A stretch of 64,000 nucleotides of DNA, from contig CAWBNQ010000011.1 in the NCBI GenBank assembly GCA_963790205.1, positions 25,591 to 89,590 of the forward strand. The letters are read 5' to 3'. Shown piece after piece: positions 45,590-53,263 of the stretch (within the stretch, counting starts at the first letter, position 1; each line of letters begins with the position of its first letter). This DNA comes from Nitrospirota bacterium. GTDB lineage: Bacteria; Nitrospirota; UBA9217. The translations under genes and the position numbers were made by a program. The notes beneath the pieces are model-generated. The model was not told the origin of the DNA. It did not search any database and saw nothing but the letters and a program-made list of their open reading frames with translations.

Positions 45590-45763
45590 ATGAATTCCAA
45601 TGGGCCGATTGCGCATATTGCAGAAGCCGGACGAGTTTACCTGCTTTCGGACCATTTGCACGGAACCGCCGAACGCGCCGCGAAATTCGCCGCTGAATTC
45701 GGCTGCGCCGGATGGAGAAGGCTCGCCGGGCTGCAGCATGAAACACGGAGTGATAATGCCTGA
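45590..45763 (+). pseudogene. Truncated 5' remnant of a cas3 HD domain (57 codons)
   Basis: My translation: MNSNGPIAHIAEAGRVYLLSDHLHGTAERAAKFAAEFGCAGWRRLAGLQHETRSDNA*. It parallels the N-terminus of the intact cas3. Below the ORF-track length cutoff. Confidence 0.75.
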
Positions 45764-47921
45764 ACTAAATGCACACTCACCGAATAGCGAAGGTAAATGG
45801 CACAATCTGCAAAAACATTTGCAGAAGGTAGCTAGGCTGTGTCAGCAGTTTGCCGCGAAGTTTGGAAGTGAGACCATCGCCAGAGATGTCGCCCTTTGGC
45901 ATGACATCGGCAAAGCGATTCCCGAATTTCAGGAATACCTTTTACTCTGTCATCAGAAACCTAATCAGAAACACCGGGGTCCCGACCACAAGGGTGCGGG
46001 AGCAATATTCGCTCTCAAGAGGTTAGAACCGCTCGCATTTTTAATTGCAGGTCACCATGGTGGTCTTCAAAATAGTGATGACTTACGCGTGTGGCTGACT
46101 CAGCGTGCTAAAAAGTGGCCTGATTCATCGATTGAGCGACTGATTCAAATTCTTGATCTCGCAGGGACAATCAATGAAAGACTCGCTCCACCTTCGCACG
46201 TCAAAACCCCAATCCAAGCCGAGTTGTTTCTGCGTTTACTTTTTTCGTGCCTTGTAGACGCTGACTTTCTCGATACCGAATACCACTTCAGTCCTGATAA
46301 ATCAACGTTACGAAAGAATGCAATCCGTATCGATGAATTGTGGCACACTTTTGAATCTAGTCAGCAAGAACTTTCCTGCAAAGGCTCCGGCTTGCTTCAT
46401 GACGTACGTAATACGATCTACCGCGAGTGTCTCGCTGCTGCGCCATTGGAGCCGGGCTTCTTCCGGCTGACCGTGCCGACTGGAGGAGGGAAAACTCGCT
46501 CGGGAATGGCTTTCGCTCTAAGACACGCGATGAAGCATGGTAAAGACCGAGTCATCGTGGCTATCCCGTACACTAGCATTATCGAGCAGACCGCTGGTAT
46601 ATATCGTGAAATCTTTGGATCGTCTGCTGTGCTAGAACATCACAGCGCGGCATCCGTGCCAGACGATGAGGACAACGTGGATGACGGCACGTCATGGGGA
46701 CGCCTTGCCGCACAGAACTGGGACGTCCCGATAGTCGTCACTACCACCGTGCAACTCTTCGAAAGCCTTTTCGCTAATAAGACTAGCCGGTGTCGCAAAC
46801 TACACAATATCGTAAACAGCGTAATCATCCTTGATGAAGTCCAAACTCTGCCCACTAAGCTTCTTACGCCTATTCTCGATGTTCTTAGTGAACTTGTGGC
46901 AAATTATCAAGTAAGCGTCGTCCTCTGCACCGCTACTCAACCCGCAGTGGAGGATGTGCCTCATTTTACAGGTATCAAAGGTATACGCGAAATTGTATCC
47001 GAACCGACAAGATGGTTTTCTAGCTTGAAGCGTGTTGACTACTTATGGGATCGAGCTGAGAAATGGACCTGGGACAGGGTTGCCAAAGAAATGCAAAACT
47101 CAGAACGATGCTTGACTATCGTAAATACTAAGAATGATGCTTTTGCATTGCTTAATGCAATTGCCGACTTCGATACGTTACATCTTTCGACCAATATCTG
47201 TGGGGCTCATCGGCGTGCGGTGCTGAAGGATGTCAGAGTCCGCCTTGCGGGAAAAAAACCATGTAGGTTAGTTTCCACCCAGGTAGTTGAAGCAGGGGTG
47301 GATGTAGATTTTCCCGTGGTTCTGCGTTCAATAGGCCCGCTCGATCGGGTCGTCCAAGCAGCCGGGCGATGCAATCGAGAGGGAACGCTTACTGCCGGGC
47401 GGATGATTGTGTTTGAGCCGTCCGAAGGCAAACTCCCGCCAGGAGATTATTCCACTGGGACTGCAACGGCACTCGCGCTTATGCAACAGGACTCATTCGA
47501 TTTTCATGATCCAGAGGTATTCAAAATATACTTTCGCATGTTGTACCAGGCAGTGAATCTTGACGCAAAAGGAATTCAACCTCTTCGCGAACGCCTTCAG
47601 TTCAAGGATACAGCAGAGCGTTTCTCTATGATAGACGACGATTCGGTATCTGTCGTGGTCCGTTACCGGGGGCCGGATGGCAGTGATGGTGAAGTGGATC
47701 GCTTGATCGAGCGACTTGCGAAGGGGTGGGGGTCGCCAATGGCCCTCGACCGCCATCTTCAGCCATATATGGTAAATCTGCGCAGACGTGCGTTTTCCCA
47801 AGCTGAAAAGGATGGGCTTGTCAGGCAGGTAATACCCGGTGTCTATGAGTGGTTGGGCAAATACGACCTCATTCGAGGGGTCATATTCGGCAACATTTCC
47901 CCTGACAATCTCGTTATCTGA
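45756..47921 (+). CDS. cas3: CRISPR helicase/nuclease Cas3 (HD + SF2)
   Basis: AHS...WHDIGK, LIAGHHGGL, VDADFLDT, VPTGGGKT, IILDEVQ, STQVVEAGVD, QAAGRCNREG. Start at ATG 45756 after GGAG. Confidence 0.95.
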   Translation: MPELNAHSPNSEGKWHNLQKHLQKVARLCQQFAAKFGSETIARDVALWHDIGKAIPEFQEYLLLCHQKPNQKHRGPDHKGAGAIFALKRLEPLAFLIAGHHGGLQNSDDLRVWLTQRAKKWPDSSIERLIQILDLAGTINERLAPPSHVKTPIQAELFLRLLFSCLVDADFLDTEYHFSPDKSTLRKNAIRIDELWHTFESSQQELSCKGSGLLHDVRNTIYRECLAAAPLEPGFFRLTVPTGGGKTRSGMAFALRHAMKHGKDRVIVAIPYTSIIEQTAGIYREIFGSSAVLEHHSAASVPDDEDNVDDGTSWGRLAAQNWDVPIVVTTTVQLFESLFANKTSRCRKLHNIVNSVIILDEVQTLPTKLLTPILDVLSELVANYQVSVVLCTATQPAVEDVPHFTGIKGIREIVSEPTRWFSSLKRVDYLWDRAEKWTWDRVAKEMQNSERCLTIVNTKNDAFALLNAIADFDTLHLSTNICGAHRRAVLKDVRVRLAGKKPCRLVSTQVVEAGVDVDFPVVLRSIGPLDRVVQAAGRCNREGTLTAGRMIVFEPSEGKLPPGDYSTGTATALALMQQDSFDFHDPEVFKIYFRMLYQAVNLDAKGIQPLRERLQFKDTAERFSMIDDDSVSVVVRYRGPDGSDGEVDRLIERLAKGWGSPMALDRHLQPYMVNLRRRAFSQAEKDGLVRQVIPGVYEWLGKYDLIRGVIFGNISPDNLVI

Positions 47922-47944
47922 TTACATAAAGGAAAGGAGGAAGC

Positions 47945-48598
47945 ATGCATAACGGTCCACCGCTTGAAGTTAAGGTTTGGGGAGAGTTTGCCTGTTTCAC
48001 CAGGCCTGAAATGAAGGTCGAGCGCGTCAGCTATCCCGTCATGACGCCATCGGCCGCGCGAGGCGTTCTGGAGGCTGTTTTCTGGAAACCAGAATTTTCG
48101 TGGCAGGTGAGAGAAATTCACGTGCTTAATGAAGTACGACACTTTTCCATCCTGCGTAACGAGGTAAACAGCAAGATGGCAACGTCCTCAGCCAGAAGCA
48201 TGATTGAAAAAGGGGGCAACTACTTTGCCGAAGAAGATAGGGCTCAGCGACATACCTTGGCGTTGCGAGACGTGGCATACCTGATTAAGGCCGACGTGGT
48301 TCTGCGACCGCACGCCACTGAAGACGTGGCTAAGTACCGCGACCAGTTCCGCAGACGGGTAACGAGCGGCAAATGCCACCATACCCCATACCTTGGATGC
48401 CGGGAGTTTGCAGGATTCTTCGGCGACCCGGATGGAAGTGAACGCCCCTTCAACCTGACCGACGATTTGGGCCTCATACTGTTCGATCTCGACTACGAGC
48501 AGGGCACCTCAGGTCGGGGGAAGCCAAGGTTCTTTTCCGCACGACTTGAAGGCGGCATTCTCAAGGTGCCTTCTGAGCTGTATAGAAAGGAGGGGTGA
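47945..48598 (+). CDS. cas5: Type I-C Cas5 (Cas5c/Cas5d)
   Basis: ACFTRPEMKVERVSYPVMTPSAARGVLEAVFWKP and PYLGCREF. Confidence 0.95.
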   Translation: MHNGPPLEVKVWGEFACFTRPEMKVERVSYPVMTPSAARGVLEAVFWKPEFSWQVREIHVLNEVRHFSILRNEVNSKMATSSARSMIEKGGNYFAEEDRAQRHTLALRDVAYLIKADVVLRPHATEDVAKYRDQFRRRVTSGKCHHTPYLGCREFAGFFGDPDGSERPFNLTDDLGLILFDLDYEQGTSGRGKPRFFSARLEGGILKVPSELYRKEG

Positions 48599-48600
48599 CC

Positions 48601-51908: not shown

Positions 51909-51923
51909 GCATGGAGGCTGACA

Positions 51924-52958
51924 ATGAAACAACTCCTCAATACTCTTTATGTTATGACCCAGGGGGCCTATCTTTCTCTCGACCATGAAACGCTGAAAGT
52001 AGAAGTGGAAGGCAAGATTCAGATGCAGGTGCCGCTTCATCACCTCGGGTCCATTGTCGTCATGGGAAACGTGATGATCAGCCCTTTTCTCCTGGGCCGT
52101 TGCGGCGATGACGGCAGGTCCGTGGCAATCCTGGATCGTAACGGCCAGTTCAAATGCCGAATGGTGGGAAAGACGAGCGGCAACGTGCTTCTGCGCCAGG
52201 CTCAGTATGAATTCGTGAGAGACGACGGAAAGGCGAGGGAGATCGCCAGGAATATCGTAGCCGGGAAGGTGAAGAACTCGCGCGAAGTCCTCATGCGCGC
52301 GGCGCGCGAGACAACAGTACAGCCGGAGTCGGATTCGCTCAGACGGGCAACGGAAACGCTCGCCGGCGCATTGTTCCGCTTGAAGGACGCTCCCGATGTG
52401 GATGCGATCCGGGGGTATGAAGGCGAGTCGGCGAACGTCTATTTTCAAGTCTTCGACCTGATGGTGAAGGAAGACGCACGTGAAGCCTTCAAGATGAACG
52501 GAAGAACCAGAAGACCGCCGCTTGACCGGATGAACGGTCTCCTGTCGTTTCTCTATACGCTCCTGCTGCACGATTGTATTTCTGCGGCGGAAGGCGTCGG
52601 GCTTGATTCGCAGATGGGTTTTCTGCACGCTCTCCGTCCGGGCAGGCCGTCGCTCGGCCTTGACTTGATGGAAGAAATGCGCGCGCTGCTTGCGGACAGG
52701 CTTGCCCTTACCCTGATCAACCGAAAGCAGGTGTCGGCATCGGACTTCGAAGTGCGGCCCGGCGGCGCGACCTATCTGAACGACGAGGGGAGAAAAACGG
52801 TGGTTGTCGCGTATCAGAAGCGAAAGCAGGAAGAATTCCATCATCCCATACTAGATGAACAGGTCCCTTTCGGCCTGATTCCTCATGTCCAGGCGCGGTT
52901 GTTAGCGCGACACTTACGCGGCGACATCGAGGAGTACGCTCCGTTCTTGTATTCATAA
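51924..52958 (+). CDS. cas1: Cas1 integrase (I-C)
   Basis: [43 protein letters not shown]. Confidence 0.96.
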
Positions 52959-52972
52959 CGCTGAGGTGGTAT

Positions 52973-53263
52973 ATGTGGATCGTTGTTGCGTATGATGTTC
53001 GCACCGATGAGGCGAAGGGGAGAAAAAGGCTTCGACGCGTGGCTCAGGTGTGCAAGGACTTCGGACAGCGGGTGCAGAAGTCGGTCTTCGAGTGTCAGGT
53101 CGATGATATGAAGTTTGAAGAGCTTCGGCGAAGGTTATTGCGGGAGATCAACGATGAGGAAGATAATTTACGTCTCTATCGGCTTACAGAGCCAAGAGAA
53201 CAGCACGTCGAGACCTATGGTCTGAGCCGCACGGTCTTCTATGATGAGCCGCTTATCGCATAG
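52973..53263 (+). CDS. cas2: Cas2
   Basis: VAYDV...[23 protein letters not shown]. Confidence 0.96.

Follow-up and report, generated by a model that had tools for sequence, protein, structure and literature searches.

We analysed a type I-C CRISPR-Cas (short palindromic repeats, clustered and regularly interspaced, with associated genes) locus in a 64,000-nucleotide stretch of DNA, referred to here as the window, from a Nitrospirota bacterium (GenBank assembly GCA_963790205.1, contig CAWBNQ010000011.1, positions 25,591 to 89,590 of the forward strand). The source genome, designated G000, is a 4.34-Mb, 14-contig assembly with a GC content of 55.1%. The locus occupies positions 45590-57013 of the window on the + strand, in the order stub-cas3-cas5c-cas8c-cas7-cas4-cas1-cas2-leader-array. 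The comparisons presented below make it very probable that a foreign type I-C block of lower GC content replaced, in place, the interference block cas3-cas5c-cas8c-cas7 (45756-51276), that the stub, a 57-codon open reading frame (ORF) ahead of cas3, is what remains of the 5' end of the resident-lineage cas3 displaced by it, and that the process is recurrent. The swap spared the resident cas4-cas1-cas2, leader and 51-repeat array. Other genomes are numbered with G, and compared loci or contigs with L.

Effector and adaptation genes have different histories

The closest adaptation module was found in G006, a genome of the same family and another genus, whose Cas1, Cas2 and Cas4 proteins are 88%, 87% and 80% identical to those of G000. 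The two genomes align continuously by blastn from 51891 to 53823 at 75% identity, through the leader, and their repeats are identical at 35 of 37 nucleotides. The effectors of the same two loci, in contrast, are distant, with identities of 30% for Cas3, 28% for Cas5 and 28% for Cas7, and no hit for G000 Cas8c in G006. The best effector matches were L037 (Cas3 and Cas5 both 91%), L038 (68, 81, 70 and 68% for Cas3, Cas5, Cas8c and Cas7) and L039 (59, 75, 58 and 62%), and the next relatives, from Brocadia, Wujingus and Geobacteraceae, stood at 56-58%.

Separate phylogenies of effector and adaptation proteins were among the checks proposed in a preliminary description of this DNA, and those of Cas1, Cas3 and Cas7 were incongruent. 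The Cas1 tree places G000 and G006 as sisters (100/99) within a five-member clade (starred). The loci of that clade split into three deep clades in the Cas3 tree, apart from G056, which has no cas3, and G000, G006, L020 and L021 separate in the Cas7 tree as they do in that of Cas3. Grouping of G000 with G006 was rejected by the approximately unbiased (AU) test for both Cas3 (p 3e-7) and Cas7 (p about 0).

Both ends of the exchanged block could be placed. DNA homology to the effector relative L038 stops at 51234, and homology to the adaptation relatives begins at 51284 (L020) or 51309 (G006); the right join is therefore assigned to the ATGA in which the cas7 stop and cas4 start codons overlap (51273-51276). 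The left join lies at the cas3 ATG, where identity to L037 steps from 60-70% to 80-100%. The same stub-cas3 architecture is present in L037, an independent Joint Genome Institute (JGI) contig. An 872-amino-acid gene lies upstream of the locus, and in genus G017 its orthologue, with a product 77% identical, immediately precedes the stub-bearing locus; because the two loci share this chromosomal site, replacement can be said to have occurred in place. The upstream context of the G006 locus differs, so the shared site is not seen there.

Base composition follows the same trend. Whole-gene GC content was 57.5% for the stub, 49.7% for cas3, 54.6% for cas5, 48.9% for cas8c, 48.4% for cas7, 57.7% for cas4, 56.3% for cas1 and 51.9% for cas2. 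At third codon positions (GC3) the corresponding values were 0.55, 0.49, 0.61, 0.48, 0.48, 0.72, 0.67 and 0.61, against a genome median of 0.70; cas3, cas8c and cas7 fall in the lowest 4% of the long ORFs of the genome, and cas4 and cas1 lie close to the median. The loci of G006 and G017 repeat this GC3 pattern. The contrast claimed in the preliminary description, which rested on hand counts of single lines, is thus real as a trend between cas3/cas8c/cas7 and cas4/cas1, but those counts exaggerated it, and the step is less clean because cas5 and cas2 are intermediate.

A related adaptation module and array, distant effectors, incongruent trees and a shared locus are the features by which in situ exchange of an effector module is recognized, and they are found here. 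The preliminary description had proposed that a foreign I-C effector block replaced the resident one in place, and the identities, trees, junctions, base composition and the G017 site support it; congruent cas phylogenies and a stub lacking Cas3 similarity, the outcomes it had named as counting against the idea, were not obtained. Its view of the locus as the footprint of a module swap holds, but needs widening, because the event is one instance of a recurrent process.

The stub matches a Cas3 N-terminus of another lineage

The stub (45590-45763) reads MNSNGPIAHIAEAGRVYLLSDHLHGTAERAAKFAAEFGCAGWRRLAGLQHETRSDNA up to its stop codon, and matches the first ~50 codons of the Cas3 HD domain. Its homology became apparent only with sequences of relatives, since a Pfam search with the stub alone gave no hit and NCBIfam gave a weak match to cas3_HD alone (E 0.063). 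By tblastn, three other genera contain Cas3 N-termini or stubs that are 63-65% identical to it (E 1e-16 to 1e-17), a full-length Cas3 of 796 amino acids in G029 is 53% identical, and a profile built from 11 related Cas3 N-termini scored it at E 1e-23. All 10 invariant residues of this N-terminal family are kept. The Cas3 likeness stops at LAGLQH, followed by E, where relatives continue LAGLWHDLGKY, and a 7-codon tail completes the ORF. The left junction (45735-45763) contains the decayed HD-motif codons (CAGCATGAAACACGGAG), which now provide a GGAG 5 nucleotides before the cas3 ATG.

The adjoining cas3 is a different gene. It carries a complete HD N-terminal region of its own, to which the stub is only 32% identical. 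The stub starts with ATG, preceded by its own GAGG Shine-Dalgarno sequence, and its TGA (45761-63) falls within codons 2-3 of cas3, which starts at ATG 45756. This start, and the resulting length of 721 amino acids, agree with ~120 homologues of 713-757 amino acids. Because the cas3 frame stays open upstream to an ATG at 45600, ORF callers report a false product of 773 amino acids, with a spurious N-terminal extension of 52 residues (45600-45755) that overlaps the stub in another frame. Judged by these sequence relationships, the stub is a Cas3 N-terminus from a lineage other than that of the cas3 it adjoins. The features first noticed in the ORF, namely its resemblance to the first part of a Cas3 HD domain, its break where the HD motif is expected and its overlap with the start of a complete, clearly different cas3, were all borne out, and the suggested tblastn search for an ancestral cas3 in relatives yielded the full-length gene of G029.

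Stubs recur and precede different cassettes

To place the stub in context, 401 Nitrospirota genomes were scanned, yielding ~42 intact genes of its N-terminal family and ~30 short remnants; counts of independent stub events are approximate. Though all of one Cas3 lineage, the stubs have a range of genes behind them: cas3 of three or more lineages, a cas5-first variant, Gabija, and toxin-antitoxin genes or transposases. G006 has its own stub, which ends in LAGLWHDLGKY and a stop codon. Behind it come a ribosome-binding site and cas3-5-8c-7 genes that form a genuine I-C set (clade C) different from that of G000. In G017 the stub stands ahead of a cas5-first, cas3-last I-C-like cassette, and further cas3 lineages lie behind stubs in G046, G060, G068, G174 and G241. 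On a Geobacteraceae contig, L099, a short stub-lineage fragment precedes a cas3 of the G000 lineage, labelled clade A. Two stacked Cas3 N-terminal stubs precede an intact clade-A cas3 in L039 (9491-9975; ENA ERZ27280322 contig), the first weak and clade-A-like, the second 60 residues long, clade-C-like and ending HDFGKYTDVF; this arrangement looks like a record of two successive swaps.

Other loci have lost their effectors or hold something else. The effector slot of G056 is occupied by a different defence system, Gabija: in L041 (G056:C12, 1191-7630), Gabija and a RhuM/PDC-S05 gene lie between a shorter stub and a 5'-truncated cas4, followed by cas1, cas2 and a 3-repeat array. GajA scored 993 bits, and GajB is split into ORFs of 160 and 416 amino acids. 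In G008 (L015 = G008:C427, 485-1605), a deletion joins a frameshifted cas3 remnant of ~290 codons to codon ~92 of cas4, and the whole effector block is gone. Toxin-antitoxin and restriction-modification genes, or a transposase, come after the stubs of G037/G062 and G051. An apparent stub in G314 was set aside, as that cas3 is split by frameshifts and not truncated.

Most stubs end in a narrow zone at the HD motif

Break positions were taken as the last Cas3-like residue, measured against the family profile. The break falls between -6 and +11, counted in codons from the H of the HD motif, in approximately 21 of 31 remnants (binomial p 7e-27), and a conservative count places 10 of 15 independent events there (p 2e-13). 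At the DNA level the breaks are not at one base; they are scattered inside CTnGCGGGnyTGTGGCATGAyyTnGGGAAGTAT. The stretch of ~30 nucleotides encoding LAGLWHDLGKY is the only strongly conserved DNA of the cas3 5' end. A search for att-like, direct or inverted repeats common to both junctions, or for solitary repeat-like sequences nearby, found none. Self-targeting or anti-cas spacers were also considered as a cause of the break zone and rejected: of 174 spacers from nine arrays, none matches any cas locus or the G000 genome. We found no description of cas3 5' stubs or of an HD-motif break zone in the open-access literature, and the recurrent stub and its break hot zone appear to be previously undescribed.

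Cassettes are younger than the stubs they follow

Pairs of related loci allow the two sides of the joint to be compared. The cas3 genes of G000 and L037 are 90% identical at the nucleotide level (synonymous divergence, dS, 0.32; dN/dS ratio, omega, 0.15), while their stubs are only 65% identical (proportions of synonymous and nonsynonymous differences, pS 0.80 and pN 0.21), and identity rises exactly at the cas3 ATG. The divergence of these two stubs is best read as long divergence under purifying selection, and not as decay of a shared scar. In the pair G037a/G062, identity is 66.7% in the stubs and 94.5% past the joint, at which there is a 12-nucleotide duplication. Because the cassettes are more alike than the stubs, the cassettes must be younger than the split between the stubs.

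In G060 and G068, which belong to the same genus (loci L043 and L090), stubs are 89% and cas3 genes 87% identical, but the tail between them is only 53% identical. In both, this tail, from HD motif to cas3 ATG, is exactly 81 nucleotides long, keeps an open frame and finishes with an ATGA overlap. Three different truncation points were found among the close relatives G017, G008 and G174. The zone from the HD motif to the next start codon is a repeatedly reworked joint.

Cassettes may be exchanged through conserved flanks

We lean towards a model in which cassettes are exchanged by recombination in conserved flanks. Related loci would exchange cassettes as in O-antigen or capsule locus switching, with the adaptation genes and array as right flank and the 5' end of cas3 as left flank. 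The left crossover would fall in the HD-motif codons, the only stretch conserved enough at the DNA level, and a stub-bearing donor would turn an intact recipient into a stub-bearing locus. The founding joins would be illegitimate, and selection against longer HD fragments may contribute to the position of the breaks.

Several observations weigh against replacement of the block as reconstructed here, or against this route for it. The best effector matches are short metagenome contigs. Composition alone gives no clean two-block picture, with cas5 and cas2 intermediate in GC3. The breaks scatter over a zone of ~30 nucleotides and tails differ between cassettes, so the whole pattern cannot be put down to homologous recombination spreading a few founder junctions, and an illegitimate join is still needed at the origin of each cassette type. 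At 65% identity, the stubs of G000 and L037 are poor substrates for direct mutual exchange. No promoter consensus was found 5' of the stub (neither a strict sigma-70 consensus nor a terminator at the stringency used), and stub pN/pS values of 0.1-0.4 are confounded by the earlier life of these sequences within functional cas3 genes. Spread of one single founder junction by homologous recombination was rejected as a full explanation, since tails and break points differ even within a genus (G060/G068).

Possible roles of the stub

In addition to marking the join, the stub might act as a leader ORF for the incoming gene, which we suggest tentatively. The old promoter would still drive its transcription, and its own ribosome-binding site its translation; by ending over the start of the new cas3, it would deliver ribosomes to an incoming gene that lacks a promoter of its own, and the GGAG/GGGGA of the motif would serve as the Shine-Dalgarno sequence of that gene. 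A leader ORF with a ribosome-binding site is plausible because the stub has its own GAGG and ATG and a stop at or near the next start. In G000, L037 and G046 the GGAG/GGGGA of the motif lies 5-8 nucleotides before the new ATG. The stop of every cas-following stub examined overlaps the next start or lies no more than 25 nucleotides upstream of it; overlaps occur at the stub-gene joints of G000, L037, G046, G060, G068 and G242, and are of the ATGA type in the last four.

It is also conceivable, if unlikely, that the stub is a selected small gene or leader ORF, a mini-protein or translational control element kept for expression of the gene behind it. Such selection would account for a frame that is open from the original ATG to the joint in almost all of the ~30 stubs, for stops that overlap or lie within 25 nucleotides of the next start, for the 81-nucleotide tails of G060 and G068, equal in length in spite of their 53% identity, and for the retention of all 10 invariant residues in G000. 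However, the ends, tails and lengths of the stubs vary, stubs persist with no cas gene behind them (ahead of toxin-antitoxin, restriction-modification or transposase genes), and no stub-specific clade or domain was seen. The low pN/pS can be explained by a recent past in intact cas3, as illustrated by the three truncation points of G017, G008 and G174. Because the history of the stubs lies mostly inside working cas3 genes, pN/pS neither shows nor excludes selection on the stub, and dN/dS was discarded as an uninformative test of stub function.

A combined proposal, distinctly unlikely in our estimate, is that the stub is a selected docking platform, in which a promoter that stays in place, a translated leader ORF and a conserved recombination zone encoding LAGLWHDLGKY are combined. 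If this were true, promoter-less interference cassettes, Gabija and the like would be swapped in behind it and expressed, by an integron-like logic in which spacer memory is kept while the effector changes.

The locus is unlikely to have arrived whole

Returning to replacement in place, an alternative is that the whole locus, with stub, effectors, adaptation genes and array, came together by horizontal transfer after a swap made in the donor. The Geobacteraceae contig L099 shows what such a transfer could bring, combining its short stub-lineage fragment with a clade-A block (Cas3 56%) and G000-type adaptation genes (Cas1 77%, Cas2 82%); stub-bearing loci thus do move between phyla as a whole. 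For G000 we nonetheless consider this very unlikely. Its chromosomal site is that of the stub-bearing G017 locus, GC3 is typical of the genome in cas4 and cas1 but not in cas3, cas8c and cas7, and the closest adaptation module, leader and repeat belong to a genome of the same family.

That no transfer took place, the effectors having evolved much faster than cas1, cas2 and cas4 and the stub being a partial tandem duplication, a frameshifted 5' end of the present cas3 or an assembly artefact, is already contradicted and can be given almost no credence: effector proteins, Cas8 above all, do generally evolve faster than Cas1, and the cas3 frame is open back to 45600, but L021 and L099 have Cas1 proteins less similar to that of G000 than G006 has and yet more similar Cas3 and Cas7, a reversal that rate differences cannot produce, while a shared history is rejected by the AU tests, the stub has 53-65% identity to Cas3 of other genomes but 32% to its own cas3, the present cas3 has a complete HD N-terminus, and the stub-cas3 architecture recurs in the independent contig L037.

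Organization of the locus

All features described here lie on the + strand. The stub is preceded by an AT-rich intergenic region (45088-45589, 44% GC), the presumed promoter of the cas operon, which showed no DNA-level conservation with relatives. The incoming genes are the clade-A cas3 (45756-47921), encoding HD and DEAD/DEAH helicase domains, cas5c (47945-48598; TIGR01876, 153 bits), cas8c or csd1 (48595-50346; TIGR01863, 348 bits) and cas7 or csd2 (50365-51276; TIGR02589, 319 bits). Cas3 matched TIGR01596 (84 bits) and TIGR01587 (116 bits), both above cutoff, and the Pfam families Cas3_HD, DEAD and Cas3-like_C_2. The resident genes are cas4 (51273-51908; TIGR00372), cas1 (51924-52958; Cas1c of type I-C, TIGR03640, 511 bits) and cas2 (52973-53263; TIGR01573), and these adaptation genes adjoin the array. 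All seven cas products passed NCBIfam cutoffs for I-C or general Cas families, among them the type I-C signature proteins Cas5c, Cas8c/Csd1 and Cas7/Csd2. There is no cas6, the ORF list of the window containing no further ORF in the operon. A leader of 166 nucleotides (53264-53429), conserved with G006 in the blastn alignment, separates cas2 from the array (53430-57013), which comprises 51 copies of the 37-nucleotide repeat GTAGCGCCCCTCAGCGATGAGGGGCGAGGATTGAAAC and 50 spacers. When 44800-54200 was scanned for known RNA families, CRISPR-DR9 alone was found.

Gene gaps in related loci hold additional genes. Between cas7 and cas4 of I-C loci from several phyla, a four-helix-bundle (23S rRNA IVP family) or RhuM gene was found repeatedly (L014:3315-3938; L097:15607-16167; L098:16041-16631; L099:15596-16633). 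The gap between cas4 and cas1 contains toxin-antitoxin genes (a gene for a PIN-domain toxin in G006; YoeB/Phd; ParE/RHH). In L038, the closest complete effector relative (Logan SRR26512503), cas3-5-8c-7 is flanked by inverted copies of the same hairpin (GGGGCGAACCTTGTGTTCGCCC; 100-178 and 5685-5798), which resembles repetitive extragenic palindromes (REP). Upstream is the C-terminus of a transposase like those associated with REP elements (RAYT), and the contig ends without a cas4 behind cas7; this effector block may be stand-alone or mobile.

The resident repeat is probably compatible with the incoming effectors

The repeat belongs to the Rfam family CRISPR-DR9 and folds into a 9-bp stem followed by an 11-nucleotide 3' tail, AGGAUUGAAAC. 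Its sequence and fold fit predicted cleavage by Cas5c leaving an 11-nucleotide 5' handle ending ATTGAAAC. The nearest array-bearing effector relatives, L034 and L098, use the 37-nucleotide repeat class of G000: the first 9 and last 16 nucleotides of the L034 repeat are identical to those of G000, and L098 has another 37-nucleotide repeat, ending GAGGATTGAAAC. Clade-A effectors are also found with 32-nucleotide repeats ending GGATTGAAAC. Given that native arrays of effector relatives have repeats of this class, the new Cas5c is expected to process the resident repeat, and the new Cascade could use the old spacers since repeat class and 11-nucleotide handle are shared. Between cas7 and cas4 of L034 (15650-15700; Nitrospirales OZ244578.1) there is an isolated, degenerate repeat end (…GCTGGTGAGGATTGAAAAC), a candidate crRNA-like (CRISPR RNA) regulatory RNA.

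Comparison with known systems

Gene order and the lack of cas6 are those of canonical type I-C systems (Dvulg; Desulfovibrio vulgaris, Bacillus halodurans and Pseudomonas aeruginosa I-C), as is a repeat with a stem-loop and a predicted 11-nucleotide handle ending ATTGAAAC. G000 differs from them in the cas3 5' remnant ORF ahead of cas3, in a repeat of 37 nucleotides (DR9 class) in place of the commoner 32, and in the different histories of the two halves of its operon.

It has been described that effector modules are exchanged in situ next to 'attractor' adaptation genes and arrays that stay fixed, with escape from anti-CRISPRs as a rationale for the shuffling (Koonin and Makarova, 2019; PMC6452270), and in situ effector shuffling is regarded as a major trend in a recent CRISPR-Cas classification (Makarova et al., 2025; PMC12669027). 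The swap interpretation of the preliminary description is therefore correct, yet not new. G000 resembles the published cases in having related cas4-cas1-cas2 genes, leader and array with distant effectors at one locus, here within one subtype. Those accounts define the right-hand anchor only, whereas loci of the G000 type show the left boundary as a cas3 5' scar; unlike anything in them, the scar recurs and breaks in one zone of ~30 nucleotides, and non-cas defence systems, Gabija for one, also enter the slot. Until now the inference of effector shuffling has rested on tree incongruence; here the join itself is visible, can be dated against its flanks and can be counted. With a left boundary in the HD-motif zone of cas3 and a right boundary at the cas7/cas4 join, a change of effectors with kept memory becomes testable. 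Natural pairs of Cascade/Cas3 sets that share a repeat class and an adaptation module offer material for tests of anti-CRISPR escape and of crRNA cross-compatibility. For annotation, the finding carries the warning that short 'hypothetical' ORFs before cas3, and over-extended cas3 calls, are relics marking recent module exchange.

In the type I-E systems of Escherichia and Salmonella, cas sets have repeatedly been transferred into one site beside a conserved CRISPR, recombination at conserved flanks has been proposed, and lone cas3 pseudogenes remain after loss (Touchon and Rocha, 2010; PMC2886076). In those genomes replacement takes in the whole cas locus and the cas3 pseudogenes arise by degradation, whereas in G000 only the effector block changed. 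Unlike in G000, neither a conserved breakpoint nor a stub fused to the start of a new cas3 has been reported for the type I-E loci.

In O-antigen and capsule switching, a divergent central cassette under diversifying selection is exchanged via homology in conserved flanks. The stub loci differ from such systems in that their left flank is only ~150 nucleotides of a dead gene, and in that their joins are imprecise, with microhomology and small duplications.

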